From positions 8,846 to 72,845 of the forward strand of contig JBGOSQ010000001.1 in NCBI GenBank assembly GCA_041476045.1: a DNA stretch of 64,000 nucleotides, given 5' to 3'. The position numbers and the translations under genes were made by a program. Under the pieces are notes generated by a model. It was not told the origin of the DNA. It saw only the letters and a program-made list of their open reading frames with translations, and did no database searches. The stretch is from Thermoplasmata archaeon. Lineage in GTDB: Archaea > Thermoplasmatota > Thermoplasmata > Lutacidiplasmatales > UBA184. Numbering within the stretch: the stretch's first letter is position 1; each line of letters opens with the position of its first letter. Shown here piece after piece: positions 3,681 to 34,458 of the stretch.

Positions 3681-4277
3681 ATGGTCGAACCGTCCTCGCC
3701 CACCCCGCCCGCCCCGACGCTGAAGGGCGGCCGACGGGCGGTCTACGTCGACCGCGACGGCACGGTCAACCCCGACCTGCGGTATCTCAAGGACGCGGAT
3801 CGGCTCGAGGTCTACAAGGGAGTCGCGGAAGCGGTCCGGCTCCTGCGGTTCCACGGATACCTGGTGGTCTGCATCACGAACCAATCCGGCATCGAGCGCG
3901 GATTCTACTCGGCGGAGGACGTCGAGCGGATCCACCGTCGCGTGAACGAGATCCTCGGAGTGGCGGGCACTTCGATCGATGCGTTCTACTACTGCCCGCA
4001 CGCGCCCGAGACGGGTTGCCGGTGCCGTAAGCCCGGGACCGAGCTGTTCGAGCGGGCGGAGCGGGAGCACGGGATCGCCCGCGCCGGCTCCGCGATCATC
4101 GGCGATCGGAGCCTCGACATCGAGGCGGGCGACCGGCTCGGTCTGTTGACGGCCCTCGTGCCGTCACCGGGACACGACGCCGAGGTCGTGCGCGAGCTCG
4201 CGGAACGGAAGATCCGTCCGGATATCACCGCTCCCACGATGCGCGCCGCGGCCGCGCGGATCCTCGCCATCGGGTAG
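3681..4277 (+). CDS. HAD-family phosphatase, D,D-heptose-1,7-bisphosphate phosphatase (GmhB)/HisB-N-like
   Basis: HAD motif I (YVDRDGTVN), CITNQSG and a CxH..C.C zinc site as in GmhB-like phosphatases. Confidence 0.65.
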   Translation: MVEPSSPTPPAPTLKGGRRAVYVDRDGTVNPDLRYLKDADRLEVYKGVAEAVRLLRFHGYLVVCITNQSGIERGFYSAEDVERIHRRVNEILGVAGTSIDAFYYCPHAPETGCRCRKPGTELFERAEREHGIARAGSAIIGDRSLDIEAGDRLGLLTALVPSPGHDAEVVRELAERKIRPDITAPTMRAAAARILAIG

Positions 4278-4323
4278 CGATCACCTACGGGCAAAGCTTC
4301 TAACTACGGTCTCTCCTCCGACC

Positions 4324-5097
4324 GTGGGGCCGACCGTGGTCCTTCCTATTTTTCTGGCCGCTCTAGGGGTCGGCGTCACCGTTGTGCTCGCAGCAGCGGC
4401 GACGCTGACGCGCGCCCTTACCCCCTGGGCCGGTGCCGTCGCGGCGGCGTTCGGATCGATCGTGGTGGTCGTCGGAGGCTTCCCGTTCCTGGGCCTCATG
4501 GTGCTCTTCGTGATCGCGAGCGTGCTCGCGACGCGCTACGGGTTCGAGGAGAAGCGTCGGGCGAAGGTGCACGAGGGGATCGAGGGCGAACGCGGCGTAT
4601 CGAACGTGCTCGCGCACGTGATCATCCCGACCGGGCTCGTCGTCGTCGCCGCGTCGGCTCCCGCCGCCCTTCCGACCGCGACCCTGGCCCTGCTCTACAC
4701 CGCGGCCCTCGCGTTCGGAGCGTCGGACACCTTCGCGAGCGAGTTCGGGGTCTTGGCGGGACGGGCGCGCAGCATCCTCACGTTGGAGCCGGTGCCCGCC
4801 GGGACCAACGGCGGCGTGTCCGCGATGGGCGAGGTCTGGGCTCTCGTCGGCGCGCTCACGACGGCCCTCCTTGGCCTCGCGCTGTTCCTCGGCTTTTCGA
4901 CCCGTATCCCGTCCGCCGGGGTCCTCCTCGGCGTGGCCACGATGGCAGGATTCCTGGGATGCCAGATCGACAGCATCCTCGGCGAGACCCTCGAGAACCG
5001 GGGTTGGCTCACGAAAGGAACGACGAACCTTCTCGGGATGGGCTCGAGCGTGGCGATCGCCGGCGCCGCGTTCCGATTGCTCGGAGGATCGTGGTGA
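4324..5097 (+). CDS. integral membrane protein, DUF92/TMEM19-like
   Basis: Six or more predicted TM helices. Conserved ATRYGFEEKRRAK...GERG loop typical of archaeal DUF92 proteins. Confidence 0.55.
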   Translation: MGPTVVLPIFLAALGVGVTVVLAAAATLTRALTPWAGAVAAAFGSIVVVVGGFPFLGLMVLFVIASVLATRYGFEEKRRAKVHEGIEGERGVSNVLAHVIIPTGLVVVAASAPAALPTATLALLYTAALAFGASDTFASEFGVLAGRARSILTLEPVPAGTNGGVSAMGEVWALVGALTTALLGLALFLGFSTRIPSAGVLLGVATMAGFLGCQIDSILGETLENRGWLTKGTTNLLGMGSSVAIAGAAFRLLGGSW

Positions 5098-5834
5098 CGC
5101 GCGCCCGGGGCAGCGTCGTCCTCCTCTCCGGTGGCATGGATTCGGCGACGTGCCTCGCGATCGCCACCCGGCGCGATCCCCCCGTTCACGCCCTCACCGT
5201 CCTCTACGGTCAGCGCCACGGCCGCGAGGTCCGTAGCGCGCGCGCCCTCGCCGCACGCTACGGGACCGCTTCGCACTCCGTGGTCCGGCTCCCGATCGGA
5301 TCCCTCCTCGCTTCGTCCCTGACGGATCGATCGGCGTCGCTCCCCTCGCGTCAGGGACCTCGCTCGAAGCGGATCCCCAGCACGTACGTCCCCGCCCGGA
5401 ACACGCTCCTGCTCGCCCTCGCCCTCGGCGTGGCAGAGTCACGACGGGCGCGGGCGATCTACCTCGGAGTGAACGCCATCGACTACTCCGGGTATCCGGA
5501 TTGCCGACCGGAGTTCCTTCGGGCGTTCGCCCGGTTGGCGAAGTTGGCGACCCGGGTGGGCGTGGAAGAGAACTGGTCGCCCGAGATCCGGGCTCCTCTG
5601 CTGCGACTCGGCAAGGCCGAGATCGTCCGGATGGGCGAGCGACTCGGCGTCCCGTGGGAGCTCACCTGGAGTTGCTACGCCGGCGGTCGGCGCCCCTGCG
5701 GCCGATGCGACTCGTGCCGGCTGCGCGCGAAGGGCTTCGGGGATGCCCGTGTCGAGGATCCCGCGGTCCGTCGAGCGAGCCGGCGAAAGGGCCCAGCCGC
5801 TCCGGCGCCCCGCGCGTCAGCTTCTTATCGGTAG
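5094..5834 (+). CDS. queC: 7-cyano-7-deazaguanine synthase
   Basis: PP-loop VVLLSGGMDS. C-terminal zinc cluster CYAGGRRPCGRCDSC. GTG overlaps the upstream stop (GTGA) with a GGAGGA RBS 5 nt upstream. Confidence 0.85.
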   Translation: MTRARGSVVLLSGGMDSATCLAIATRRDPPVHALTVLYGQRHGREVRSARALAARYGTASHSVVRLPIGSLLASSLTDRSASLPSRQGPRSKRIPSTYVPARNTLLLALALGVAESRRARAIYLGVNAIDYSGYPDCRPEFLRAFARLAKLATRVGVEENWSPEIRAPLLRLGKAEIVRMGERLGVPWELTWSCYAGGRRPCGRCDSCRLRAKGFGDARVEDPAVRRASRRKGPAAPAPRASASYR

Positions 5835-5861
5835 ACTCATCTCGGCGAGTGAGGGAGAGGA

Positions 5862-6284
5862 ATGAGCGTCGCAGCGGACTTCAGGAAGTTCTTGTTTTCG
5901 GGCAGCCTGATCTTGATGGCCGTCGCCTTCGTCGTCGGCTTGGCCATCGTTGGGTTGATCGGCGCCCTCGTTGCCGACATCATCAACCCGCTCATCGGTG
6001 CCGCGGTGCACGTGAATTTCAATGATCTCGGGATCCTCACCCTCAACGGCAGCCCGATTCTCGGTGGGGCGTTCCTCGGATCGCTCATCAACTTCGTCAT
6101 CCTGATGGCCGTTGTCTTCTTCCTGATCGCCTATCCGTACCAGCTCTCGCAGGACCGCAAGGCGGCCCGGACCGCCGCCGCGCCCCCGACCACCCGGGAC
6201 TGTCCCGCATGCTGCAACGCGATCTCCGTGAAGGCCACGCGCTGCGGCTTCTGCACCTCGACGGTGACACCCTCCTTGCCGTAG
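5862..6284 (+). CDS. mscL: large-conductance mechanosensitive channel MscL with C-terminal CPxC/CxxC zinc-ribbon tail
   Basis: MscL-like N-terminus and two TM helices (FRKF...GNVVDLAVGVIIG-type core). GGAGAGG RBS. C-terminus CPACCNAISVKATRCGFC. Confidence 0.7.
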   Translation: MSVAADFRKFLFSGSLILMAVAFVVGLAIVGLIGALVADIINPLIGAAVHVNFNDLGILTLNGSPILGGAFLGSLINFVILMAVVFFLIAYPYQLSQDRKAARTAAAPPTTRDCPACCNAISVKATRCGFCTSTVTPSLP

Positions 6285-6396
6285 CGACGACCGGGCAACC
6301 CCCGCCAACAGCGAGGTCCCCACCCGCGCGGGCACTATGGGCCGGCGAGGGCCGGGAACCGAGGCGCGGAGTCTGAGCCGCTCGGTTGGGGCGCGA

Positions 6397-8214
6397 TCAC
6401 ATGCGCTCGGGAGCGTCGAGTCCGAGCAGGCCCAGCGCGTTCGCGAGGGTGATCCGGCTCGCGGCGACGAGCGCGATCCGGCTCGCCCGTTCGGTTCCCG
6501 CGGTCAACACCGGGGTCGACTCGTAGAACCGGTTGAACTGCTCGGCCAGGTCGTGCGCGTACCCCGCGAGCGTGTGGACATGGGTCGTCCGCGCGACGTA
6601 AGCGACGACGCCGGGCAGGCGGGAAAGCTGCCGGACGAGCGCGCGTTCGTCCGCGGTTCCGAGGAGCGCCGGATCGAACGCGGGTCGTTCGGGAACGCCC
6701 TCGGCCTTGCGGAGAAGGCTCGAGGCACGCGCGTAGGAGTACTGGAGGAACGGACCGCTGCGGCCCTCGAAGGACAGCGCGTCCTCCCACCGGAACTGGA
6801 CGACCTTCTCGGGTGCCACGCGCAGGATGTGATACCGTACCGCCGCGGCGCCCACCGACTGCGCGATCGCGTCCACTTCGGCGTCCGGCAGACCCTCGCG
6901 GCGCGACCGAACCTCGCCCTTGGCCCGCTCGATCGCCTCGTCGAGGAGATCGTCGAGATAGACGACCTTGCCCTGGCGGGTGGACATCCGACCGCCCTCG
7001 GGGACGGTGATGTCCTGGTAGATCACGTACTCCGGGCGCCGAGACTCGCCGATCTCGGCCAGCATCGCCTCGAGCGTCCGTGCATGCAGGTGGTGGTCCT
7101 GGCCCAGGACGTCGATCGCACGGACGAACCGAGCGAACTTCGAGAGATGGTAGGCGATGTCCCGGGTGGGGTAGAGCGTGGTCCCATCCGGCCGGGTCAC
7201 GATGATCCGGGCGTTCTCCTTGGGAAGACCGTAGGAGGAGGTGTCGAGGGCCGAGGCACCGTTCGCCTCGGTCACCGCGTGAGGGGCCTTCCGCAATCGG
7301 TCGACGACACGCTCGACATCGCCGTTGCGCAGGAAGGAGGACTCCCAGACGAACTCGTCGAACCGTATCCCGATCCGTGCGAGCGAGGCCGACATCCCGC
7401 CCAGCACCGCTTCCGCGATCGTGTGGTGGTTCGGGACATCGCCACCGGTCTCGAGTCTCCGGCTGATGTCCTGGACCTCGGTCGCGGCCTCCGGGTGCGT
7501 CTTCAGGTACTTGCTCACCGCGGGGTACGGGCGACCGTAGCGAACGTCGGGCCGCAGCGCTGCCTCCGCCTCCGGCGTAGTTCCCTCGACGGTCGCGGCG
7601 ATCTCCGGCGGCCACGAGTCTCTCGGCTTGGACCAGATCCACGTCACCATCGCGGCCTGTCGGCCCACGTCGTCGACATAGTACTGGGTCGTGACGGCGG
7701 AGCCGGTCGCACGCAGGACGCGCGCGAGGGTGTCACCGATAATCCCGTTCCGTACCCGGCCGACGTGGAACGGACCCGTCGGGTTCGCGCTAGTGTGCTC
7801 GACGCAGACCGGCGTGAGCGGTCCCGTGAGAGTGCCCCACGCTCCGCCCCGAGCGAAGATCGCGCCCAGTGTGGCGGCCGTCAGGGACACCGGATCGGCG
7901 GTGAAGTTCGCAAAGCCGTTGACCGCGCTGCTGCGCACGATGCCTGGGAGGGCGGGAAGGCCCCGGACGAACTCGTCGGCGAACTCCGCCGGCGATCTCC
8001 CGAGCGCCTTCGCCGGTCGGTGAAGGGCGAGCGCGAGGTCGCCGTGCGCGCTGCCCGATCGGTCCAGCTGGGTTCGGATCGATGCGGGGTCCGCCGGAGC
8101 TTTCAGCTCGGCGAGCCGGACCGAGAGCGCGAGCACGAGCGGATCGACGATCGCATCCCAGGGATCGTCGGCGATGGTCGGAGCATCGGGACCGTGCGGC
8201 GTCGATATCGTCAC
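6397..8214 (-). CDS. argS: arginine--tRNA ligase
   Basis: Class-I aaRS with HVGRVRN (HIGH-like) and ArgRS-type catalytic and anticodon-binding regions. The in-frame GTG at 8214 is preferred over the ORF start at 8346, which would overlap the divergent gene. Confidence 0.85.
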   Translation of the reverse strand: MTISTPHGPDAPTIADDPWDAIVDPLVLALSVRLAELKAPADPASIRTQLDRSGSAHGDLALALHRPAKALGRSPAEFADEFVRGLPALPGIVRSSAVNGFANFTADPVSLTAATLGAIFARGGAWGTLTGPLTPVCVEHTSANPTGPFHVGRVRNGIIGDTLARVLRATGSAVTTQYYVDDVGRQAAMVTWIWSKPRDSWPPEIAATVEGTTPEAEAALRPDVRYGRPYPAVSKYLKTHPEAATEVQDISRRLETGGDVPNHHTIAEAVLGGMSASLARIGIRFDEFVWESSFLRNGDVERVVDRLRKAPHAVTEANGASALDTSSYGLPKENARIIVTRPDGTTLYPTRDIAYHLSKFARFVRAIDVLGQDHHLHARTLEAMLAEIGESRRPEYVIYQDITVPEGGRMSTRQGKVVYLDDLLDEAIERAKGEVRSRREGLPDAEVDAIAQSVGAAAVRYHILRVAPEKVVQFRWEDALSFEGRSGPFLQYSYARASSLLRKAEGVPERPAFDPALLGTADERALVRQLSRLPGVVAYVARTTHVHTLAGYAHDLAEQFNRFYESTPVLTAGTERASRIALVAASRITLANALGLLGLDAPERM

Positions 8215-8257
8215 CGAGAGCAATCGTAAAGCGGAACGGCCATCATAACGATTCCTC

Positions 8258-9157
8258 GTGGCCGCCCTTCTTCTCGTCCGGTACGGTGAGCTTGCGCTCA
8301 AGTCACCGCCCGTCCGGCGGGAGTTCGAACGCACGCTGCGCCACAACGTGCTGGAACTGTTCCTCGCGGCGGGCGAGACGTGCCGGCTGCGCTCGGACCA
8401 CGGCCACCTCTACGTCGAGGCCGACGACGCCGCTCGCGCGATCCGGATCATCCGCCGCGTCTTCGGCGTCACCTCGGTGAGCCGCGTCGTCGAGGTCGCG
8501 ACCGATCCCGCGGCGATCCGTGGGGCGACGATCGAGATGGCGGACCCGCTCCTCACGGACGGTCGGTCCTTCGCGGTTCGCGCCCGTCGTACCGGTCAGC
8601 ACCCGTTCACGAGCCAGGAGCTCGCGGCGTCGGTGGGCAGTGATCTGCTCGACCGGTTCGCCGACCGGCATCTCCGAGTGGATCTCGACCATCCCGAGGT
8701 CGAGCTCTTCGTCGAGGTCCGAGACGCGCGGACCTACCTGTACCTCGATCGCGAGGCCGGGCCGGGCGGACTTCCGCTCGGCGTAGCCGGCCGTGTCGCA
8801 GCCCTGGTCGACGGGCCGCGGGGGGCTCTGGGAGCCTACCTCCTGATGAAGCGGGGGTGCAAGTGCGCGGTCGTCCCGACCACGGTCGGGGCAGCACTTG
8901 TCGAGAACGTCCTACGACGGTTCGATCCGAAAGCCCGCGTGGCCGATACCGTCGTCGACCCGGCCGCGGCCGACGGACCGCTCGCGCTCCTCGCCGACGA
9001 GACGCACGCGGACGGAGTCGTCCTTCCGCTTCTTGTCGACGATTACCCGGCGGCCAAGGAGCGCTGGGGGGAACGGGTCGTCTTTTCTCCCACGGTGGGT
9101 CTCACCGACGAGGAGGTGGAGGGGCGATGGCGCGCCGTCGAACGGCTCGCGGCGTAA
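8258..9157 (+). CDS. ThiI-like THUMP-domain protein with degenerate PP-loop (truncated, probably non-catalytic)
   Basis: N-terminal ferredoxin-like plus THUMP pattern (LLVRYGELALKS...). The PP-loop position reads LVDGPRGALGAYLLMKRG instead of SGGxDS, and the protein is only 299 aa. Confidence 0.55.
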   Translation: MAALLLVRYGELALKSPPVRREFERTLRHNVLELFLAAGETCRLRSDHGHLYVEADDAARAIRIIRRVFGVTSVSRVVEVATDPAAIRGATIEMADPLLTDGRSFAVRARRTGQHPFTSQELAASVGSDLLDRFADRHLRVDLDHPEVELFVEVRDARTYLYLDREAGPGGLPLGVAGRVAALVDGPRGALGAYLLMKRGCKCAVVPTTVGAALVENVLRRFDPKARVADTVVDPAAADGPLALLADETHADGVVLPLLVDDYPAAKERWGERVVFSPTVGLTDEEVEGRWRAVERLAA

Positions 9158-9504
9158 AGACGGTCGGGCTCAGGCCGTTCGTCGTCGAGGACGTCGCAGC
9201 GGCCGGCCGCAACGCCACGGCCCCCGATCCGTCGGCCCCCTCCGTGAGCCTGGCGGGTCGAGAACTTCTTGATGAACGCGTCCGGGCTTGGAAGGAGGAG
9301 CGTGCCCGGTTCGAACGCTCTCGACGGCCGCGTGCTCCGGTCGCCACCGCACGGGATCCGACGATCGCCGACCGCGAACCGTAACCCGGACCGGGCCGTA
9401 GGGCTCCGAACGGTGGACGGTCGAGGGCCCGCACGACGCCCGCTCCCCTCGGACAAAGACTTAAGAACCGTGCCCGGGTGGGCGCGTCCACCCAGGAGGG
9501 CCCC

Positions 9505-9690
9505 GTGCCGCACTGGTCCGTTACCGGGACATTCTTAGCCCGCCGTTGGGATTGGCAGACGTTCACGAAGAGCTGCGAGGCCCCGTCGGCCGACCAGGCG
9601 CGTGAGTGGGCGCTCTCCGAGATCGGTGGGTGCCACGGGGTCAAACGGACACGGATCCGGATAGGCACCGTGACCGAGGTCCAGGCCTGA
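9505..9690 (+). CDS. rplX: ribosomal protein LX (L18Ae/eL20)
   Basis: VTGTFLARRWDWQTFTKSCEAPSADQAREWALSEIGGCHGVKRTRIRI matches the LX consensus (F.V.G.F...FTKE...HGVKRxxIxI). GTG 4 nt after GGAGGG. Conserved position upstream of pfdA and ftsY. Confidence 0.6.
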   Translation: MPHWSVTGTFLARRWDWQTFTKSCEAPSADQAREWALSEIGGCHGVKRTRIRIGTVTEVQA

Positions 9691-9692
9691 GA

Positions 9693-10166
9693 ATGGCGAC
9701 CGCCCCCGTCACGGAGCAACAGGTCCAGGACGACCTGATGCGGCTCGACGCGTACCGCAGTCAGCTCAATCAGCTCGTTCAGCAGCACCAGTACCTGGCC
9801 GCATCGCGCGGCGACCATCTGCGGGCCAAGGAGGCCCTCGAGGGCCTCGATCGCGTCGGGGACGCCTCCGAGCTCCTGATCCCGGTCGGGGGGGAGACGT
9901 ACGTCCACGGTCACCCGGCCGCGGGACGTAAGGTCCTCATCGGCGTCGGGTCCGGCGTCGTCGTGGAGCTCGAGCGGCCTAAGGTCATCGAGATCCTCGC
10001 CGAGCGCCTCACAAAGATCGACCAGGCCGCCCAAGAGCTCGAGGGCCAGATCCGCGGGCTCGACGAGCGCGTGCAGCTCCTCGCCCGACGGATCGACTCG
10101 GTCACGCAGGGAAGCGGATCGTACGAAACCTCGGGACCAGCGTCGGACGATGTGGGCATCGATTAA
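9693..10166 (+). CDS. pfdA: prefoldin alpha subunit
   Basis: Coiled-coil, beta-hairpin, coiled-coil pattern (QLNQLVQQHQYLAASRGDHLRAKEALEGL...VHGH...KIDQAAQELEGQI) in the conserved LX-pfdA-ftsY context. Confidence 0.75.
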   Translation: MATAPVTEQQVQDDLMRLDAYRSQLNQLVQQHQYLAASRGDHLRAKEALEGLDRVGDASELLIPVGGETYVHGHPAAGRKVLIGVGSGVVVELERPKVIEILAERLTKIDQAAQELEGQIRGLDERVQLLARRIDSVTQGSGSYETSGPASDDVGID

Positions 10167-13504: not shown

Positions 13505-14158
13505 GTGGCCGATCACTACACGCGCCTGCTCGAGTGGCGTCGCGAAGAGGCCGCCGCGCGCGGTTTGCATAAGCTCCCCCACGATTTCTACACCAGTACC
13601 CAGTCGTACCTCGCCGAGACCCGCGCCACCTTCGAAGCGGAGCTGCGGCAGAACCCGGCGGGCAAGAAGGGGGACGTCGCGCGCCAGACCTACCAGCGGG
13701 CGGCGCAGATCGCACGCGACGTGGTCGAGGCGCGGATGATGAAGGTCCTGACCCTCGCGTTCCAGTCGAGCGTCGGCACCGGTCGCGAGCTCTCGAACGC
13801 GCTCCCGGAAGAGCGGGTCCTCTTCGACCGGCTCGTCGACGGACTCCGCAGCCACCGCCAGGACGTCGCCCCCTTCTTGGAATCCACCGCGGCAGCGCCG
13901 GTCGCGGTCGCCGCTGGCCCGGCACCTTCGGCCCCACCGCCCACTGAGCCGACTGGGGCGAGCGCCGCCGGAGGACCCGGTCGACCGACCGTCGTGGTCC
14001 GTATCTTGCGGGACGCGCCTCCGATCGAGCTCGGCTCGGGCACCCTCGAGCTCCGGAAGGAGGACGTCCTCAATCTGCCCGCCGAGACCGCGAAGCTGCT
14101 GATCCAGGCGCAGGTCGCCGAGCGCGTGACCCCCGCCGGACCACCGCGCGTCACGTAG
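13505..14158 (+). CDS. GINS subunit Gins51-like (A plus B domains)
   Basis: N-terminal LPHDFY...SYL helical A-domain. C-terminal VVVRILRDAPPIELGSGTLELRKEDVLNLPAETAKLLIQAQVAERV resembles the GINS B-domain (LRKGDV..LP...A..LI). Confidence 0.5.
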   Translation: MADHYTRLLEWRREEAAARGLHKLPHDFYTSTQSYLAETRATFEAELRQNPAGKKGDVARQTYQRAAQIARDVVEARMMKVLTLAFQSSVGTGRELSNALPEERVLFDRLVDGLRSHRQDVAPFLESTAAAPVAVAAGPAPSAPPPTEPTGASAAGGPGRPTVVVRILRDAPPIELGSGTLELRKEDVLNLPAETAKLLIQAQVAERVTPAGPPRVT

Positions 14159-15275
14159 CGGGTAGGGTGTCGCCCGCCGACCACTCGATCACTCGGAACG
14201 ACTCGAACCCGAAGAGTAGGTTCTTCGCCGCGAGGCGCAGCCGGACCTCCGCCTCCGGGCCTCCGACGGCCGCGAGCGCGGATTCGAGCCGGCGTTCGAA
14301 CCCCCAGCGGCGGAGCGCCTCCCGCTGGGGTCCGCAGAATCGCTCCACCAGGCCGGCGGATGCGGCGGCGGAGCGAACCCGGGTGAAATCCACGAAGGTG
14401 CTCAGATCGGAGTACCCCGGTCGATCGAGCGGATCGGGAAGGGTCCGGTGTCCCCGGATCGCCTGGAGCGTACCGCGCGGACGTCCGAGGAGAAGGTCCG
14501 GCTCCTCGGCCCCGTAGTCGAGAACAATCGCCGTCCCCTGCGTGAGGTGGTCCGCCAGTTCTCGGACGAATCCTTCCGCGCTCGGGGCGAACTCGAGGAT
14601 CGCGCCGTCGGGGGCGATCTCGGGCAACGGCATTCCGACGACCGGGCGAAGATCGCTCTCGGCCGCGACGAACCGGTCTTCGTTCCACCGGACACCGAGC
14701 TCGCGCCATCTTCCAGTACCGTAACGAAGGCGGCGGGCCGGCTGGGCGTCGAGGAGCTCGTTCGCGATCACTACGCCCCGGAAGGGACCGTCGGTCGAGA
14801 GGGCTTCCGCCACGCGGACCCGGGCGCTCGCCGCCGCCTCGGCGAGGCGCTGCACGGCCTGCTCGCGCAGCGCGCTGGATCGCTCGACGAGCAGGTACTC
14901 CCAGTTCGCGTCCGCGGGGAGCCTCGCGTCGAGCGCGTCGATCATCGACCGTGCGAGCGTCCCGTCGCCCGGCCCTACCTCGACGACGCGGAACCCGAAC
15001 GGACTTCCCAACCGGACGAATTCTGCGGCGACCCGGTCCGCGAGCGTCGCCCCGAAGAGCGGGGAAACGTGGGCGGCGGTGTAGAAATCGCCGGCGGGCC
15101 CGATCCGACGATCGGGGGCGTCGTAGTAGCCGGCGCCGGGCAGGTAGAGCGCTATGGCCTGGAACTGGTCGAACGGGACGAACCCCGTCGGATCGGCGCG
15201 TCGACGGATCGCTTCGGCGACCGAGGCGAGGCGCGCCGCCTCATCGGGGACCGGTGCATTGGGGTCCGACGGCAC
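14151..15275 (-). CDS. SAM-dependent methyltransferase, MidA/NDUFAF7 (DUF185) family
   Basis: VEVGPGDGTLA Rossmann motif with MidA-type N- and C-terminal regions. Confidence 0.55.
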   Translation of the reverse strand: MPSDPNAPVPDEAARLASVAEAIRRRADPTGFVPFDQFQAIALYLPGAGYYDAPDRRIGPAGDFYTAAHVSPLFGATLADRVAAEFVRLGSPFGFRVVEVGPGDGTLARSMIDALDARLPADANWEYLLVERSSALREQAVQRLAEAAASARVRVAEALSTDGPFRGVVIANELLDAQPARRLRYGTGRWRELGVRWNEDRFVAAESDLRPVVGMPLPEIAPDGAILEFAPSAEGFVRELADHLTQGTAIVLDYGAEEPDLLLGRPRGTLQAIRGHRTLPDPLDRPGYSDLSTFVDFTRVRSAAASAGLVERFCGPQREALRRWGFERRLESALAAVGGPEAEVRLRLAAKNLLFGFESFRVIEWSAGDTLPAT

Positions 15276-15311: not shown

Positions 15312-16088
15312 TCAGCCGATGTAGCCGAGGTCCTCGCGCGGCTGCTCGCGGGTCGCCTCGGCCGGCTTCTGCTCGGCGTCGTGGATCTTCTGGGCGATCC
15401 GGTCGATCTCCTTGGCCTTCGCCTCGAGTTCGGAGAAATCGACGGTGAGGCCGAGGACGGTCGATAGGACCTTGAGGACCGCTTCCGCACTGCGCGGGTC
15501 GACGAAGTAGCCGCTCGTCTCGCCCATCAGGCAGACCCCCTCCATCCCGAAGGTCCGGCCGAGGCCCAGGAAGAGACCCGAGGCACCGATGAGGCCGCCC
15601 CCCGGGTCGTTGCGCGAGAAGACGACACCCGCCTTCTTCATCGCCTCGACGCGCGCCGAGGTCGTAGCCGCGCCGAGCACGCGCGGGTTCTCGACGACGT
15701 GGCCCTGGGCGAATCCCGCGAGCGTGTAGACCTCCTTCACACCGAGGGCAGCGCAGAACTCGAGCACCCGGTAGGTGAGCTCGTACTGGCCTTCGGGCGA
15801 GATCCCCTGGTAGTCGCCTCCGAGGATGATCACATCGCGCTCCCCGGCCTTGGTCCCGCGGCGGTACGAGAGCTCGTTCGAGACGAGGCGGATGATCCCC
15901 TCCTCGCTCACATAGACCTGGGGCGGGAAGTGCTTCGAATAGATCGAAGCGATCGGCTTCGCCTTGAGCTGTTCGCGGAGGTAGTCCGCGGCGAGCTTGC
16001 CGACGTTCCCGACGCCGGGCAGTCCTTCGACGAGGACCGGGTCCTTGAGCTCGGGCTTTTCCGTGACGCGGAAGAGGACGTCGTCCAT
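15312..16088 (-). CDS. PAC2-family protein (proteasome assembly chaperone-like)
   Basis: LVEGLPGVGNVGKLAADYL... PAC2 N-terminal signature, with a GxGG region. Confidence 0.6.
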   Translation of the reverse strand: MDDVLFRVTEKPELKDPVLVEGLPGVGNVGKLAADYLREQLKAKPIASIYSKHFPPQVYVSEEGIIRLVSNELSYRRGTKAGERDVIILGGDYQGISPEGQYELTYRVLEFCAALGVKEVYTLAGFAQGHVVENPRVLGAATTSARVEAMKKAGVVFSRNDPGGGLIGASGLFLGLGRTFGMEGVCLMGETSGYFVDPRSAEAVLKVLSTVLGLTVDFSELEAKAKEIDRIAQKIHDAEQKPAEATREQPREDLGYIG

Positions 16089-16136
16089 TTCGAGAGAACT
16101 CCGCCCTTGGACCGGGGGAGCGTAGATAATGCTTCG

Positions 16137-16916
16137 CTAACGGGGCGGTGCGTCTGCGCCGCCGGCGGAGGTGGCGACGGCGGCGAGACCGTCGTCGGTC
16201 ACCCGGAGACGCCAGCGGCCGGTGCGGTCCGGCCGATCCCCCAGCTTCCGGACGGAGACGAGGATCGACGGCGGGTCATCGGTGGAGTCGGTCTTGAGCT
16301 CGAGGACGACGTCGGCCAGCTCCTCGAGCTGCGTGCGCGCCGCCGCACCGGCCGGATCGTCCTGGAGCACGAGGAGGGCCTGCCCACCGTACTCCTGGGC
16401 GAGACGACGGATGTGACGCGCCACGCGGGCCACCTGGGCCGGTTCGGCGAGCTCCAGGAAGAGGTCCAAAGAGTCGAGGACGAGGCGGAACGGACCGTCG
16501 ATGGTCGCGAGATCGGCGAGCAGCCGGTTCTCGAGGTTGAACGTGCGGCGCTGGACCGGCATGCTCGGAGCGCCGGCGAGATCCCGATATGTGAGCCCAC
16601 GCTCGCGGGTCCTCGAGACCTCGATGTCCCGCTTCAGGACCCGGTCGTAGTACTCGGCCGCGAGATCGACCGCGTTGAGGCCCTCGGTCTTCCACCCGAA
16701 CCCGGCGAAGGCGCGCGCGACGTCCTCGGAGCGTTCGTACGTAGTGTAGTAGAGGACCGGCGATCGGCCGATGCCCGCGTGGGCGAACTGCTTGGCCAGG
16801 AGCGACGCGCCGCCGCCCGATCGACCCTCGACGACCCCGAGCCAGCCGGCGGCGAGTGTGCCGCGGATCGCCTCGTCGAGTTCGGGAACGCCGAGGAGGG
16901 CGGGCGTCTCCGCCAT
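16137..16916 (-). CDS. KaiC/RecA-like single-domain protein with degenerate Walker A (GRSGGGAS, no Lys/Thr)
   Basis: RecA-superfamily fold pattern (GIPELDEAI..G; LVLDSLD). P-loop lysine missing. Confidence 0.55.
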   Translation of the reverse strand: MAETPALLGVPELDEAIRGTLAAGWLGVVEGRSGGGASLLAKQFAHAGIGRSPVLYYTTYERSEDVARAFAGFGWKTEGLNAVDLAAEYYDRVLKRDIEVSRTRERGLTYRDLAGAPSMPVQRRTFNLENRLLADLATIDGPFRLVLDSLDLFLELAEPAQVARVARHIRRLAQEYGGQALLVLQDDPAGAAARTQLEELADVVLELKTDSTDDPPSILVSVRKLGDRPDRTGRWRLRVTDDGLAAVATSAGGADAPPR

Positions 16917-16917
16917 C

Positions 16918-17502
16918 CTACGTTCCTCCCCGACCGACGTCGATCGTCTCGTCGACGACGAGGGCGAGCATCTGGTCGAGGTCGGAGGTCATCTCCTCGC
17001 TGACCGAGAGAACGATGGCGAGGACCTGTCGGCTCTTCAGGTTCGTCAATAGGATATGGAAGAACTCCGACAGGAGGTCGGGCGGATTGTGGATCGCGAG
17101 CGAGTTCACCGAGTCGATGACGACGATCGACCGGCTCGACGGATGCCGCCGAAGGAGGTACTCGACGCGGAGCATGATGTCCTCGAGCATCCGCGGGCTC
17201 TCGATGTACGTCGCGTTCGGGAGCGGGTCCCGATAGTTCATCATGATGTGGCTGATCGCGTCGACGAAGGACAGTCGGTCCATCTTCACGTCGAGCGCCT
17301 GGGCGAGCGACCAGACGAGCGCGGACGGGTTCGTCACGGAAACGTAGATCGTGTGGGCGTTCGTCTCGCTCCCGATGTCGCGCAGCGTCGCCGACAGGAC
17401 GGCGAAGTACTGGTCCGCGTACTCGCGCGGCTCGATCCGAACGGCGACGGCCGCGCCGTTGCCGAGCTGGCGCAATCGGTCGCTGATGTCCACGGTCGGC
17501 AT
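16918..17502 (-). CDS. KaiC/RecA-like domain protein lacking a P-loop
   Basis: Aligns with RecA-like core strands (IVVIDSVNSLA; VLAIVLSVSE) but has no Walker A; 1-nt spacing to its neighbours. Confidence 0.45.
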   Translation of the reverse strand: MPTVDISDRLRQLGNGAAVAVRIEPREYADQYFAVLSATLRDIGSETNAHTIYVSVTNPSALVWSLAQALDVKMDRLSFVDAISHIMMNYRDPLPNATYIESPRMLEDIMLRVEYLLRRHPSSRSIVVIDSVNSLAIHNPPDLLSEFFHILLTNLKSRQVLAIVLSVSEEMTSDLDQMLALVVDETIDVGRGGT

Positions 17503-18282
17503 CTACGACCCCTCCGGCCGACCGCCCTTGAGGTGCGGTGCCATGAGGAGCCCGATCGGCGTGAGGCCGATCACGTACTGGGCGCGCGAGTGCGAGGTCC
17601 CGCGCATCTTGACGATCTGGAGGACCCGGATGATGTCTCCCTGACGGCGCGTGTTGCCGAGGAGGATCACGCCGTCCACGATCGCCTCCTCGACGCCGTA
17701 CAACGAGAGCCGTCCGGGAGTCGGGCCGACCTCGCTCACGAGCAGGGTGGTGCAGTCGAGCTGGGAGAGTTCCTGGCCCAGCTTCAGCATGAAATCGCGG
17801 ATACGCTCCTCGCGCCGGATCCGGTAGCACACGGAGGTCAGCGAGTCCAGGACGACCCGTCGCGCCCCGAGCTCTTTCACGAGCCCTCGGATCGTCAGGA
17901 TAAGCAGATCCGTATCCTCGACGGTGAACTCCTCGCGGTCCAACCCCAGCCGGTCGTAGATCACGGGCACGTCGACGAACGACAACGACCCGTTCTCGAC
18001 GAGCTCGGGACGGAAGAACTCGAATGCCGAGAGGTTCTGAATCAACTTCCCCGAGGTCTCGGTCACCGACAGGAACAGGCACTTCTCGCCGCGCTCGGCC
18101 CCGCGAACCAGGAACTCGAGTGAGAGCGTCGTCTTGCCCGAGCCGACCGTCCCCGACACGAGGATCATGTTGCCGCGCGGAATCCCGCCCCCGAGAATGT
18201 CGTCGAGACCCTCGATCCCGGTCGCACACCGGCCGCGCGCCTCGGGCGTCGCCCCGGGTTCGTGTGCGCCGAGAGAAGCCAT
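17503..18282 (-). CDS. KaiC/RadA-like ATPase (intact Walker A and B)
   Basis: GIEGLDDILGGGIPRGNMILVSGTVGSGKTTL; Walker B VVLDSLT. Confidence 0.7.
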   Translation of the reverse strand: MASLGAHEPGATPEARGRCATGIEGLDDILGGGIPRGNMILVSGTVGSGKTTLSLEFLVRGAERGEKCLFLSVTETSGKLIQNLSAFEFFRPELVENGSLSFVDVPVIYDRLGLDREEFTVEDTDLLILTIRGLVKELGARRVVLDSLTSVCYRIRREERIRDFMLKLGQELSQLDCTTLLVSEVGPTPGRLSLYGVEEAIVDGVILLGNTRRQGDIIRVLQIVKMRGTSHSRAQYVIGLTPIGLLMAPHLKGGRPEGS

Positions 18283-18323
18283 TGGGCGAACAAGGGGGGG
18301 CGCTCCCTAATAGAATTACTCCG

Positions 18324-20813
18324 TCAGGGCCGGCTCGCCGCGGATCCGCGGCCCCGCCATCGCCGGGAGGCGTCGTCGAGCTCCCGCGGGTCGACGCCCG
18401 GGCCGAGCAGACGTTCGAATCCCGCCCGCCCCACCTCCCAGTAGGTCCCCTGCTCGTCGCGATCGGAACGGAGCAGGACCCCTTCCTCGCGCAAGCGCCG
18501 GCCGAGCGACCGTACCTCTTCGCCCGGCGGATCGAAGATCGCGCGGAGTTCGTCGAGGAGGATCCGGACCGCAACGCCGTTCTCCGAGTCCAGGATCTCG
18601 GACCAGATCGCGAGGATCATCGTGCGCAAGACCGGCACCAGCCCCGGTCGGAGGCCGGTTTCGGTAGTCGTGGCGCCAATGCTCGCGGGAACGGCAGCGG
18701 TCTCGATCGCCGAACGAGGGAGAAACCGGGAGGCGGCGTCGCGCACTGCCTCGAAGCGTGAGTCCCGATCGTCCGGCGCCCGTTCGACCGGCGGATCGGT
18801 CCGGACGACGAGGACGCGTTCTCCCTTCCCCAGCAACGCGATGGCGTGGCCTGGGGGTTGTGACCAGAACGCTTCGGGGCGGAGCCGCGGGAGCATCCGG
18901 CCGAGGTCTCGAGCATCCGTCGGGGACCCGCGGAACACGAGGAAGTCCGCCACGTTCGTCTGCACGGCCATCCGGACCGCCTCCGGCAGACTGTCGAGCG
19001 ACTGGGTGGCCATCCAGACGTGCAGGTTCGCCCGCCTACCGAGACGGAGCATCTCCGCGACGGAGTCGTGGGCGTACCACTGCACCTCGTCCAAGATGAG
19101 AAAGGTCTTGCTCGCATCCGGCGACGCGAGTCGCTCGCTCCAGAACAGCGCGAGGTACACCGCGAGCAGGTAGCGAGCGGCGTCCTCGCCGACGATCGCG
19201 GCGTCGCCGGTGAGAACGGTGATGCGCCCCGGGGCGAACATCTCCGCTACCCGGAACCGCGCCGTCGGATCGCCGAGCATCGAGCGGAGGACCGCTCGAT
19301 CGACGAGCTCGGCGAGCAGCCGGCGGCTTCCGTCGACCTCCTCGGGACGCTCGCGGACCCGCGCCGCCAGCTCCTCGAACGCCTCGAGGGCCTCGTCGGG
19401 GACGCCGACCGGACGACGGGACGCCGTCGTGAGAAGACGGGGGAGGTCGGCGAGCGTGGCCCCTGGGAGGAGCGCCGCGGCGCGCAGCGTCGCCCGAACG
19501 GTTTCCTCGATACGGGGGCCCCAGAACGCCGTCTCCGTGAACCGTCCGGCGCGGATCCGTCGCAGCGCCGATACGAGATCGCTCACGCACCGGTCGGCGG
19601 AGGCCGGGGTCCGACCCGAGCTGCGCAGGGCGGCCAAGAGGTCCAACGCCACCGGGCTCGAATGAGGAGAGATCCAGACGACGTTCGCGACGTGTCGGGC
19701 CGGAAGGGAGGCGAGGAAGGCCCGACCGGTGTCCCCGACCGGATCGAACAGCACGACGTTGCCGGAGCCGAGCGAGGACCGGGCGAGCCGGATCAGGACC
19801 GAGCTCTTGCCCATTCCGGTCTCTCCCAGCACGATCGCGTGACGCCCCTGACCGGGCGCGACGGGGAGCTCCGCGAGGTTCCCGGCCGAGTCGCGTCCGA
19901 ACGCGATGGGACGGCCGCCGGCCGCCGGCGAACGCGGTTCGGACACGTACCATGTGGATGGAGAGGGGAGCACACCGAGGATCTCCGGCTCGCTGAGCAG
20001 GAATATCGGAGGGGGAAGGGCGAGAAGAGGGAAGGGTCGTCGGAACCGAACGCGGCCCCGGCTTCCCCGAGCGGAGGCGAGGGCGACGACGGAGCACCAT
20101 CGGTCCGTGTCGGTAACGCGGATGCGGGGATCGGTCACATCGACGACCAGTTCCGTGGCCCACGTGGGCGCGAGGCGTGCCTCCGCATCGAGGTCGCGAG
20201 CTTCTCGCTCCGGCCCGGTGAGGTTCTGAAGACGAAAGCCCGGCGGCTGACGGCGGCCCTCGAGCTCGGGAGATTGTTCCCCTATGAGGATCGGTGTTCC
20301 TGCGGGACGCGAGCGCCATCTCGTTCGCAGGCCCGGCGGGAACGTCGGAAGGGCTGCCACGGCGGCATCGGTCCACGAACCTCGCTCTCCTCCCCCGAGC
20401 AGGAGGATCCCTCCGGTCGATACGCCGTAGCGGGGTGCTCCGACACCGAGCGCGTCCTCGACATCGACGGTCCGGGGTCGCCACTGGCCCAGCTCGAACG
20501 CCGGCGACAGAAGCCGCGAGATCCACTGACGGCTCGCGGGGTCCCCGCCCCGCAGGACCACCTCGGCTCCCGGACCGGAGGACCAGCGGAGCTCGAAGGC
20601 GACCCCCATCGCATGCCCGGCGCGCAGGGCGTTCGGCCGGGCTGCGGCCCCGTCCGTCTCGAGCTCTTTGGCGGAACCGATACGGGGCGAGAAGACCCAC
20701 TCGGTCGTGGATTGGGAGCTCACGCGGCGGGCACGGAGCCCTCGCCCGAGTTCATTGTCGACCCCGTGAGCGATGAACGCTGGCGGTAGTCGTCCGACCT
20801 TCGCCACCCTCAA
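18324..20813 (-). CDS. HerA/FtsK-like P-loop ATPase (DUF87/AAA_10 type) with large N-terminal region and C-terminal wHTH-like tail
   Basis: Walker A HAIVLGETGMGKSS; Walker B FLILDEVQ; ATQSLDSLP motif typical of HerA/VirB4/TraD-type ATPases. Exact start uncertain. Confidence 0.55.
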   Translation of the reverse strand: MRVAKVGRLPPAFIAHGVDNELGRGLRARRVSSQSTTEWVFSPRIGSAKELETDGAAARPNALRAGHAMGVAFELRWSSGPGAEVVLRGGDPASRQWISRLLSPAFELGQWRPRTVDVEDALGVGAPRYGVSTGGILLLGGGERGSWTDAAVAALPTFPPGLRTRWRSRPAGTPILIGEQSPELEGRRQPPGFRLQNLTGPEREARDLDAEARLAPTWATELVVDVTDPRIRVTDTDRWCSVVALASARGSRGRVRFRRPFPLLALPPPIFLLSEPEILGVLPSPSTWYVSEPRSPAAGGRPIAFGRDSAGNLAELPVAPGQGRHAIVLGETGMGKSSVLIRLARSSLGSGNVVLFDPVGDTGRAFLASLPARHVANVVWISPHSSPVALDLLAALRSSGRTPASADRCVSDLVSALRRIRAGRFTETAFWGPRIEETVRATLRAAALLPGATLADLPRLLTTASRRPVGVPDEALEAFEELAARVRERPEEVDGSRRLLAELVDRAVLRSMLGDPTARFRVAEMFAPGRITVLTGDAAIVGEDAARYLLAVYLALFWSERLASPDASKTFLILDEVQWYAHDSVAEMLRLGRRANLHVWMATQSLDSLPEAVRMAVQTNVADFLVFRGSPTDARDLGRMLPRLRPEAFWSQPPGHAIALLGKGERVLVVRTDPPVERAPDDRDSRFEAVRDAASRFLPRSAIETAAVPASIGATTTETGLRPGLVPVLRTMILAIWSEILDSENGVAVRILLDELRAIFDPPGEEVRSLGRRLREEGVLLRSDRDEQGTYWEVGRAGFERLLGPGVDPRELDDASRRWRGRGSAASRP

Positions 20814-20851: not shown

Positions 20852-21970
20852 GTGTCGTCCCTCGAGGAGCAGATCACTGCGGTCGAGGACGAGATCCGCA
20901 ATACCCAGTACAATAAGGCGACCCAGCACCACATCGGTCGGCTTCGCGCTAAGCTTGCCTACTTGCGGATCGAGCGCGAGAAGCGGGCCGCTGGCAAGGG
21001 CGGCGGTACCGGTTACGCGGTTCGAAAGTCCGGGCACGCCACCGTCGGACTGGTCGGGTATCCCTCGGTCGGAAAGTCCACGCTTCTCACCCAGCTCACC
21101 GGAGTGGCGAGCGAGGCGGGAGCGTACGACTTCACGACGCTCTCGATCATCCCGGGCATGATGCGCTGGGGCGGTGCGTCGATCCAGATCCTCGACATGC
21201 CCGGGCTCGTGCCCGGCGCCGCCAAGGGCCGGGGCCGCGGACGCGAGGTCCTTTCCGTCGTACGATCGGCGGACCTGGTGATCTTCCTGATCGATCCGGA
21301 GCACTCGGACTTCAAGGCGCTCTACAACGAGCTCGAAGGCGCCGGCGTCCGCATCAATACCCGCCCGCCGAAGATCGTCATCACGCACGCCGAACGAGGG
21401 GGCCTCACCATTTCGAGCACGGTCCGGCTCACCCACCTGGGTGGTGGCCTCGCCGTCCAGATCGCTCGCGAGTTCGGCGTCCACAACGGCTCGATCGTCT
21501 TCCGCGAGGACGCGACAGCGGAGCAACTGATCGATGCCCTCGCCGGCAACCGGGTCTACCTCAAGGCGATCCTCGGGGTGAACAAGAGCGAGCTCTTCCC
21601 CGCCGACGGTCGGACGCGCGTCCGGGCACAGGTGCGGCCGTTCACGCCGCTGTTCATCTCCGCGCGCACCCGCGAGGGACTCCCGGAGCTCATTCGGGCT
21701 ATCGGGGAGACGCTTGCGTTCATCCGGATCTACGTCAAGCCGCCAGGCCTGCCCCCCGATCGCGAGGAGCCCGTGATCTTGCGACGGGGGCAGCGCGTGG
21801 ACGATCTCCTGAAGCGTCTTCCTACCGAGTTGGACCACGCGTTCAAGTCGGCCCAGATCTGGGGACCGAGCGCGCGCTTTCCCGGTCAGACCGTCGGCCG
21901 CGACCACGTCCTCGCCGACGAGGATGTCGTGACCGTCGTCATCCAGCGCGGGGCGCGCGTCGCGGCGTAG
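20852..21970 (+). CDS. developmentally regulated GTP-binding protein (DRG, Obg family with TGS domain)
   Basis: VGLVGYPSVGKSTLL G1 box, DMPGLV; C-terminal TGS domain; GTG start after GGGTGAG. Confidence 0.8.
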   Translation: MSSLEEQITAVEDEIRNTQYNKATQHHIGRLRAKLAYLRIEREKRAAGKGGGTGYAVRKSGHATVGLVGYPSVGKSTLLTQLTGVASEAGAYDFTTLSIIPGMMRWGGASIQILDMPGLVPGAAKGRGRGREVLSVVRSADLVIFLIDPEHSDFKALYNELEGAGVRINTRPPKIVITHAERGGLTISSTVRLTHLGGGLAVQIAREFGVHNGSIVFREDATAEQLIDALAGNRVYLKAILGVNKSELFPADGRTRVRAQVRPFTPLFISARTREGLPELIRAIGETLAFIRIYVKPPGLPPDREEPVILRRGQRVDDLLKRLPTELDHAFKSAQIWGPSARFPGQTVGRDHVLADEDVVTVVIQRGARVAA

Positions 21971-34284: not shown

Positions 34285-34458
34285 CAGAATACAACGATTA
34301 CTTAATCATTGTGTAATTTCGTTAAACGATTCACCTTCCCGCGACCGCCGGGTCCGTGCCACTGTGTGGGGGGCGAGAGCAGTTATCCGGTTCCGGCGAA
34401 ATATTTCCCAGTTCTAAGTGCCCCGACCTTAAAGGGCAGAACGCCCGCAGGGGGGTCC
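34285..34458. promoter_or_regulatory. AT-rich divergent control region between the RHH gene and the Kelch surface-protein gene, with direct repeat AACGATT x2
   Basis: acagaatacAACGATTacttaatcattgtgtaatttcgttaAACGATTcacc is the only strongly AT-rich stretch in about 5 kb. Confidence 0.4.

Follow-up and report, generated by a model that had tools for sequence, protein, structure and literature searches.

Type IV coupling proteins (TrwB of R388, TraD, and VirD4) carry an N-terminal membrane anchor and act with relaxase and secretion partners encoded on mobile elements. KaiC-like proteins have been linked to a motor ATPase in a different system: the KaiC-like ArlH assembles on the ArlI ATPase as a hexamer, with autophosphorylation governing how the two interact. 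The combination of active KaiC with inactivated KaiC domains (“iKaiC”: DUF835 and MEDS), with KaiC proteins as signaling hubs, is an established archaeal theme according to PMC5847659, which cites Makarova 2017, and earlier literature records KaiC-family genes beside type IV pilus loci of archaea. Here, we describe a locus from a Thermoplasmata archaeon (Lutacidiplasmatales; UBA184) in which these ingredients, namely, a coupling-protein-type ATPase and KaiC with inactivated KaiC modules, are of already known kinds and lie side by side. The window, that is, the whole 64,000-nucleotide stretch analyzed (contig JBGOSQ010000001.1, positions 8,846 to 72,845), encodes on the minus strand, between positions 16137 and 20813, a large ATPase followed by three KaiC-like proteins, hereafter proteins 1, 2, and 3 in gene order and, collectively, the trio (their working labels, KaiA, KaiB, and KaiCc, imply no relation to KaiA and KaiB of the cyanobacterial clock). 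The ATPase and the trio, which we treat as two neighboring units, are both fixed in the core genome of a lineage of soil Thermoplasmata including Lutacidiplasmatales/UBA184 metagenome-assembled genomes (MAGs).

An earlier note on this DNA assigned the large ATPase to the DUF87/HerA type. The assignment holds for the FtsK-HerA superfamily but not for HerA proper. DUF87/HerA (PF01935) scores 22.5 bits on the window ATPase against a Pfam gathering cutoff of 23.2, with a precomputed, often weak, PF01935 match present in many homologs; the FtsK motor (PF01580) scores 17.6 bits against a cutoff of 24; and all matches in the profile libraries (among them AAA_16, DUF87, FtsK_SpoIIIE, TraD, EccC, and CedB) are weak and subthreshold. 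The best PDB sequence match is TrwB (E = 0.004), and a database search retrieved only ∼33 close relatives within the family, each from a Thermoplasmata MAG, with TrwB_AAD_bind proteins ranking next. When the AlphaFold model of the ATPase (mean pLDDT, 81) was compared with the PDB using Foldseek, TrwB again ranked first (E = 1.7e-11; target-normalized TM-score, 0.62), VirB4/TrwK came second (full-length alignment; TM-score, ∼0.44), and HerA (4d2i; E = 5e-11), DndH-C, and TdpA appeared further down. An hhalign comparison matched the ATPase to an actinobacterial DUF8128/TrwB_AAD_bind protein (P0037; 99.6% probability, E = 8e-25, 29% identity) over ATPase residues 272 to 661 only, with the N-terminal domain outside the alignment. 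Because TrwB tops the Foldseek ranking and hhalign links the ATPase to a TrwB_AAD_bind protein, the ATPase belongs to the type IV coupling protein (TrwB/TraD/VirD4) branch of the superfamily. A WGPRI motif is common to the ATPase family and the nearest outgroup proteins. The actinobacterial protein and a close relative of it adjoin Replic_Relax genes and recombinases, that is, a mobile-element coupling-protein context. Thus placed, the motor of the ATPase, comprising the P-loop and an all-alpha insert, is descended from conjugative type IV coupling proteins.

The ATPase open reading frame (ORF) spans positions 18324 to 20813 on the minus strand and was characterized by using the ORF list, Pfam, NCBIfam, a PDB search, the AlphaFold model, Foldseek, and hhalign. 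The ORF called from TTG 20813 is present at the 829 amino acids (aa) given in the earlier note; however, the true start is probably GTG 20723, which yields a 799-aa product and makes the TTG call ∼30 codons too long. The GTG start is preferred because homologs are 793 to 800 aa long, residues 1 to 33 are disordered in the model, and 128 nt are left to the divergent DRG gene, compared with 38 nt from TTG 20813. In an alignment of 18 sequences, conservation extends over the entire length of the protein and includes GETGMGKS, an invariant WGPRIEE, an LDE(A/V)QW Walker B motif, a TQ sensor, and invariant arginines in LGRR and FRG. The model consists of an alpha/beta N-terminal domain, a P-loop core with a six-helix insertion, and a C-terminal H-b-H-H-b-b domain. 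The first of these (approximately residues 34 to 300; positions 19914 to 20714, minus strand) was delimited by family alignment columns and model secondary structure, and the core (approximately residues 301 to 700; 18714 to 19913, minus strand) was delimited by invariant columns, Foldseek, and hhalign. Within the core lie the Walker A motif GETGMGKS (19803 to 19826, minus strand), conserved in the alignment; the all-alpha insertion (approximately residues 400 to 527; 19233 to 19616, minus strand), whose six helices and invariant WGPRIEE are seen in the model and the alignment; and, according to the alignment, the Walker B motif LILDE (19086 to 19100, minus strand). The C-terminal domain (approximately residues 727 to 795; 18429 to 18635, minus strand) is a predicted winged helix on the basis of its H-b-H-H-b-b topology (pLDDT, ∼90).

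These features separate the ATPase from each of the motors to which it is related. With the coupling proteins it shares the P-loop domain and an all-alpha insert at the same place, but it lacks their membrane anchor: no membrane helix was detected by Kyte-Doolittle analysis (19-residue maximum of 1.41, with the peak in the C-terminal domain). It is, furthermore, chromosomal, vertically inherited, and order-wide, in contrast to coupling proteins encoded with their partners on mobile elements, and it has, in addition to the motor, a family-specific N-terminal domain of ∼270 aa and the predicted winged helix. Profile searches of Pfam and the PDB identified no relatives of the N-terminal domain, and sequence searches of the same databases identified none of the C-terminal domain. 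HerA, in HerA-NurA and in HerA-based defense, belongs to the same superfamily, and HerA structures are among the Foldseek matches; however, HerA has a HAS barrel and NurA, Sir2, or DUF4297 partners, and the window ATPase has none of these. The HAS barrel in particular, which had been raised as a possibility for the large N terminus, is not predicted, and the modeled domain is mixed alpha/beta. FtsK/SpoIIIE proteins combine a membrane N terminus with the PF01580 motor, whereas the window ATPase has no such helices and its PF01580 match is subthreshold; the FtsK gamma domain is a winged helix, and residues 727 to 795 have a predicted winged-helix topology but no relation in sequence to solved structures. 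The isoelectric point of the ATPase is 9.96, versus 4.9 to 5.8 for the trio proteins.

Among the genes listed for the related loci, none near the ATPase encodes a relaxase, an integrase, a type IV secretion component, NurA, or Mre11/Rad50. An integrated conjugative element was rejected as an identity for the locus on the grounds of the missing relaxase, integrase, and secretion genes and of synteny that extends over an order. The outcome that the earlier note named as refuting its reading, placement of the ATPase in a well-known family with a defined partner set (for example, a conjugative one), has come about in part, namely, in the affinity to coupling proteins, but the relaxase, the secretion genes, and the anchor are absent. 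As modeled, the ATPase appears to have lost both the membrane anchor and the relaxase/secretion partners; a domain specific to its family forms the N terminus, and a winged helix is predicted at the C terminus. By analogy with its family, it is most likely a hexameric, nucleic acid-dependent translocase.

The three proteins encoded downstream of the ATPase differ in how much of the KaiC ATPase site they retain. Protein 1 (259 aa; positions 17503 to 18282, minus strand) matches Pfam KaiC (PF06745) with an E value of 1.9e-55, and its profile matches KaiC (1.8e-74), PH0186 (2e-48), and SSO2452 (4.3e-27) in the PDB. Its Walker A motif, GTVGSGKTT (18127 to 18153, minus strand), is accompanied by the catalytic Glu75 and a Walker B motif, VVLDS, and G47, G49, K50, T51, T52, E75, D146, and S147 are invariant in the family. 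Judged by these motifs, all of which are intact, protein 1 is a bona fide single-domain, archaeal-type member of the KaiC family. Protein 3 (259 aa; 16137 to 16916, minus strand), classified by Pfam, family consensus, PDB profile, and hhalign, matches PF06745 (E = 3.6e-16), KaiC in the PDB (profile match, 1.8e-17), and protein 1 (hhalign probability, 93%), but its P-loop is degenerate (GRSGGGAS; 16803 to 16826, minus strand); the Walker A lysine is missing family-wide, whereas the protein keeps the Walker B DS and, in the catalytic position, a Glu. Its motifs mark protein 3 as an inactivated KaiC-like protein.

Protein 2 (194 aa; positions 16918 to 17502, minus strand) is the most divergent of the trio in sequence. 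It contains no P-loop or Walker A motif, its PF06745 match is below the cutoff (E = 7.8e-5; 22.6 bits versus 26.6), its hhalign links to protein 3 (E = 5e-4) and protein 1 (E = 0.022) are marginal, and a profile search of the PDB returned no sequence match. The AlphaFold model (pLDDT, 90.4) nevertheless has a RecA/KaiC fold, with the best Foldseek TM-score (0.74) to PH0284, and the Foldseek E values of KaiC, RAD51 (including its paralogs), RadA, and Elp456 lie within ∼10-fold of each other. Taken together, Pfam, hhalign, AlphaFold, and Foldseek identify a P-loop-less protein of RecA/KaiC fold that is related to DUF7504 (“iKaiC”). When its profile was run against 1.8 billion cluster representatives, 719 clusters of this family were retrieved at an E value of ≤1e-3; its members are either stand-alone proteins of ∼190 aa or C-terminal domains, and in the fused members, the DUF7504-like domain is joined to DUF835, TPR/SNAP, Ig-like, or BatD receptor-type proteins. 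The trio thus comprises, by its motifs, one catalytically intact KaiC and two predicted pseudo-ATPases. Pfam, family consensus, and the fold model agree on one intact and two P-loop-degenerate KaiC-like proteins, as the earlier note had proposed, and the motifs quoted there (GETGMGKS, ILDEVQ, and ATQ in the ATPase; GSGKTT in protein 1; no Walker A in the 194-aa protein; GRSGGGAS in protein 3) are all present.

Among described systems, the trio is closest to the archaeal KaiC/iKaiC network (DUF835 and MEDS), which likewise combines an active single-domain KaiC with inactivated domains and is associated with type IV pilus loci; protein 2, for its part, belongs to a DUF7504-like family with fusions to DUF835 and receptor-type proteins. 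Features of the cyanobacterial KaiABC system are lacking: all three proteins are single-domain, and no KaiB- or KaiA-family genes were found in the neighbor lists searched. Elp456 and the Rad51-paralog complexes are RecA-fold hetero-oligomers with partly degenerate P-loops and are structurally near protein 2, but they show no specific sequence kinship to the trio, for which membership in the KaiC family is far stronger. The searchable literature contains no description of a soluble, core-genome derivative of coupling proteins with new terminal domains. Likewise, neither a fixed KaiC-iKaiC-iKaiC trio nor the pairing of such a trio with a coupling-protein-like ATPase is described in the searchable literature, which in these two cases did not cover Makarova, Galperin, and Koonin 2017. 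The combination had been put forward as unrecognized, and no account of it was found in the literature searched; the joining of active KaiC with iKaiC is in itself known already, as noted in PMC5847659.

A scan of GTDB species genomes yielded 142 relatives of the ATPase, and 80 loci were kept, almost all of them from genomes titled Thermoplasmata or Thermoplasmatota MAGs, including “Ca. Lutacidiplasmatales,” “Ca. Lutacidiplasma silvani,” and UBA184. The ATPase together with all three KaiC genes was present in 63 of the 65 species-level loci with at least 3 kb of sequence downstream of the ATPase gene, so that the gene linkage proposed from the single sequence is conserved. When the window proteins were used as tblastn queries, the order DRG (divergent), ATPase, protein 1, protein 2, protein 3, PAC2, and methyltransferase was recovered in essentially all loci that were long enough. 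Median identities to the window proteins are 39% for the ATPase, 75% for protein 1, 73% for protein 2, 46% for protein 3, 75% for PAC2, and 74% for DRG; proteins 1 and 2 are thus as conserved as DRG and PAC2. In the window, the four ORFs are separated by 41, 0, and 1 nt, which agrees with the close spacing on the minus strand described previously. Across loci, the gaps within the trio are −4 to +10 nt throughout, save for −32 nt in L047, a value that depends on the start-codon call, and the trio genes are probably translationally coupled. The gap between the ATPase and protein 1 genes is typically ∼24 nt. The G+C content of the window is ∼70%, and the four ORFs have a G+C content at third codon positions (GC3) of 0.82 to 0.92, a coding-type composition. 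Because of this GC3 and the same gene order in 63 of 65 species-level loci, the four ORFs are not chance ORFs. The homologs of all four are under purifying selection.

The upstream context of the ATPase differs in one subclade. In five species-level loci (L017, L022, L026, L034, and L078; approximately positions 4000 to 9800), an SMC-ScpA-ScpB operon takes the place of DRG as the divergent neighbor of the ATPase gene, and the block from the ATPase to the methyltransferase is intact in this subclade; in addition, SMC and ScpB genes are located just upstream of the ATPase gene in L008. The adjacency to SMC-Scp is possibly a hint of a chromosome-related role or possibly a mere rearrangement breakpoint.

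An AT-rich element, with the consensus YTTTAGG or CTCTTAGGG, occurs 26 to 33 nt (mostly 27 to 29 nt) upstream of the protein 1 ATG. In the window, this TATA-like element, TAATTCTATTAGGG, occupies positions 18305 to 18318 on the minus strand, 23 to 36 nt 5′ of the ATG, and is a candidate promoter of the trio. Of the 73 unique upstream regions of the L001-to-L089 clade, 50 carry the element at this distance; several of the others appear to hold it further 5′, where the start codon was called too early. In compact loci, the element and the stop codon of the ATPase gene overlap. By its sequence and position, we infer that the element is likely an archaeal TATA box of a leaderless or short-leader trio transcript; its spacing fits such a box, and therefore, the trio likely forms its own transcription unit. 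The trio is probably transcribed separately, with possible read-through from the ATPase gene. Of the four-gene operon proposed in the earlier note, the tight trio stands, whereas a single transcription unit is doubtful given the promoter-like element and the inserts, including an opposite-strand gene, that precede the trio in some relatives.

The trio also exists without the ATPase. In L090 to L092 and L099, genes similar to those of proteins 1, 2, and 3 overlap by 4 nt and are followed by two Pilin_N genes, and in L093, a Methanomassiliicoccales MAG, a protein 1-protein 2 pair has a pilin gene downstream. A metagenome scan yielded 80 sister-clade loci. Among those of at least 5 kb, ∼45 of 47 contain the KaiC pair or trio followed by one to three pilin genes, and no ATPase gene was found within 8 kb of the sister-clade trio or pair. 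The pilin products have a textbook class III signal peptide and a hydrophobic helix (...RKDEEAVSPVIATILMVAITVVLAAVLYV), and their N terminus, AVSPVIATILMVAITVVLAAVLYV, is nearly invariant (L099 to L178 and L090 to L094). A divergent OMPdecase/RraA fusion gene upstream of the sister-clade trio is common to the Methanomassiliicoccales locus, and this shared neighbor argues for vertical inheritance. The trio is older than the ATPase unit: other Thermoplasmatota carry the trio without the ATPase and with pilin genes after it. Pilin homologs were not found near the ATPase-bearing loci, either in the 64-kb window or in L001 to L089. One candidate pilin in the window (4339 to 4488) was a weak match and was rejected as a multipass membrane protein. 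Separately, a type III-A CRISPR-Cas (Csm) operon is located at 13634 to 20570 in L093, ∼3 kb downstream of the KaiC pair and pilin gene.

We propose, tentatively and short of calling it probable, that a KaiC ring acts as a switch on a domesticated coupling-protein-like translocase. The three paralogs would coassemble into a mixed RecA-like ring, with ATP binding and hydrolysis or autophosphorylation confined to one kind of subunit. By docking on a hexameric motor ATPase, in the manner of ArlH on ArlI, the ring would then work as an adaptor or switch that depends on nucleotide or on phosphorylation; the motor under its control in this lineage would be the domesticated translocase, which may bind nucleic acid via its basic surface and winged helix. 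ArlH-ArlI, with a single-domain KaiC-like ring on a hexameric motor, is offered here as a parallel. Protein 1 has weak matches to ArlH (NCBIfam, E = 3e-10; FlaH in the PDB), but ArlH-ArlI involves one KaiC-like protein versus three here, two of them inactive, and the motor here belongs to another ATPase branch. Archaellum genes are absent from Lutacidiplasmatales. An archaellum component proper was rejected as an identity for protein 1, with no archaellum genes nearby and an ArlH (NF052589) score of 40 bits against a cutoff of 215.

The chief rival to a KaiC switch on the translocase is synteny without functional coupling: the trio would be a general signaling or pilus module, the ATPase would have an unrelated job, and their adjacency would follow from regional synteny. 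We consider this doubtful, yet several observations speak for it and weigh against the switch. The whole block, from Nop5/fibrillarin to FtsY/prefoldin, including PAC2, the methyltransferase, and ribosomal genes, is syntenic, and therefore, adjacency by itself says little for coupling. A conserved promoter-like element belongs to the trio alone and is retained where the ATPase gene is 600 to 4,500 nt away. The gap between the ATPase and protein 1 genes widens to 0.6 to 4.5 kb in L029, L030, L033, L036, L039, L040, L053, and L062, and in three of these loci, a 180-aa ORF on the opposite strand lies between the two units (L030, 12427 to 12969 [−]; L036, 12292 to 12834 [−]; L040, 12286 to 12828 [−]); of these three copies, only that of L030 was scanned, and it proved to be a DUF1697 gene. 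Each unit is found without the other: in L020, PAC2 directly follows the ATPase, with no adjacent trio; in L069, response regulators take the place of the trio downstream of the ATPase; in L006 and L007, which encode a more distant ATPase, the trio is not nearby; and the trio without the ATPase is widespread in the sister clades. The ATPase has also diverged far more rapidly than proteins 1 and 2 (39% versus ∼75% identity). A further point against the switch is that the winged helix through which the ATPase may bind nucleic acid is called from predicted topology only. Conversely, the presence of the four genes in nearly all species-level loci, the typical gap of just ∼24 nt, and the fact that the ATPase-trio block holds together when the upstream context changes from DRG to SMC-ScpAB speak against mere neighborhood and count for the switch. 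As observations in their own right, the larger inserts in L033, L040, and L062 contain ORFs without Pfam matches, and the L069 response regulators (13692 to 14750 [−] and 15748 to 17028 [+]) are two receiver-domain proteins with ArsR-type winged helices.

A DNA-transaction machine for recombination, repair, or segregation, in which the KaiC-like proteins would be RadA paralogs similar to SSO2452/aRadC and the ATPase an FtsK-like translocase guided by its winged helix, is unlikely. It would account for the SSO2452, RadA, and RAD51-paralog structures among the matches, for the basic ATPase with a predicted C-terminal winged helix like FtsK gamma, and for the location of the ATPase beside an SMC/Scp cluster in five species-level loci and in L008. 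The SMC adjacency, however, probably goes back to one rearrangement; the neighborhood contains no gene for a nuclease, Mre11/Rad50, or NurA; the sister-clade trio is linked to pilins, not to DNA repair genes; and protein 1 matches KaiC far better than RadA.

The earlier note had also pointed to anti-phage or anti-plasmid defense with a HerA-type ATPase, as in Sir2-HerA and DUF4297-HerA, and this association finds little in its favor beyond the mobile-element descent of the ATPase core, weak PADLOC HerA matches in the P-loop region (E ∼1e-4 to 1e-2), and a mad8 match (E = 1e-19). The mad8 match is perhaps one to a broad P-loop ATPase profile, in our own estimation, given that HHpred/PDB alignments were the source of the MADS profiles; no other mad gene is present, and the trio has no PADLOC matches save a marginal mad8 P-loop match of protein 1. 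PADLOC identified no defense system at the locus, there is no effector gene (Sir2, nuclease, or DUF4297), and the related genomes show not a defense island or mobile context but a core housekeeping location, with housekeeping neighbors of the ATPase in at least 80 loci. The cluster is near-universal, at the same position across an order, and proteins 1 and 2 are conserved at a housekeeping level, making a role in defense very unlikely. Least credible of all is an Elp456-like hetero-hexameric RecA-fold ring that might serve tRNA or ribosome biogenesis, by analogy and in view of the surrounding translation and RNA modification genes: three RecA-like paralogs with degenerate P-loops resemble the Elp4/5/6 composition, there are weak Pfam matches to PAXNEB (Elp4; E = 0.0012) and Iki1 (Elp5; E = 0.012 and 0.00095), and an Elp456 chain has the best Foldseek E value for protein 2 (2e-6), but all these Pfam matches are under the curated cutoffs, Foldseek does not discriminate among RecA-fold families and gives its best TM-score to PH0284, the protein 1 profile matches KaiC at 1.8e-74 with no Elp protein among the PDB matches listed for proteins 1 to 3, and the sister-clade trio is linked to pilins.

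A KaiC ring switching the translocase can also be stated in a stronger form, which we think improbable as it stands: a conjugative coupling ATPase, domesticated by an archaeal order, would have lost its anchor, gained a new domain at its N terminus and a winged helix that binds DNA, and come to be run by an ancestral, pilus-linked KaiC heterocomplex. The heterocomplex would consist of one active and two pseudo-ATPase subunits in an Elp456-like arrangement. If true, this would represent a new kind of KaiC-gated DNA pump, possibly involved in DNA uptake or exchange or in chromosome handling.

Other genes border the two units. A gene of the PAC2 family (proteasome assembly chaperone family; PF09754, E = 6e-56) is located at positions 15312 to 16088 on the minus strand, 48 nt downstream of the trio, exactly as had been noted, and is followed by a Methyltransf_28 gene. 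PAC2 is probably a conserved downstream neighbor outside the system, because it is not adjacent to the trio in the sister clades. On the other side, ORF and profile scans place the DRG-type GTPase gene, divergent from the ATPase gene, at 20852 to 21970 on the plus strand. Elsewhere in the window, a 1,362-aa ORF (39847 to 43935, minus strand) combines a divergent part resembling Ile/Val-tRNA ligases (TIGR00392 ileS, E = 1e-33 and 116 bits versus a cutoff of 621; Pfam Anticodon_1, E = 5.5e-14), a weak helix-hairpin-helix match, and, at the C terminus, the inactivated KaiC domain DUF835 (E = 7e-18). Either a synthetase paralog is fused here, unusually, to iKaiC, or the ORF is overextended in GC-rich DNA. 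A 1,378-aa ORF (47237 to 51373, plus strand) has no Pfam or NCBIfam match, and a 1,232-aa protein with Kelch and PKD repeats (34309 to 38007, plus strand) is surface-protein-like.

KaiC-like proteins have been proposed as main archaeal signaling hubs, and very few of their outputs are known. The fixed trio, with one active and two inactive members, offers a small and testable model for the influence of pseudo-ATPase partners on a KaiC switch; the organisms are uncultured, and therefore, progress would come via recombinant proteins. The same trio is linked to pilins in some lineages and is paired with a DNA-motor-like ATPase in another, and that ATPase would clearly exemplify the recruitment of a coupling protein from a mobile element to an archaeal core genome.

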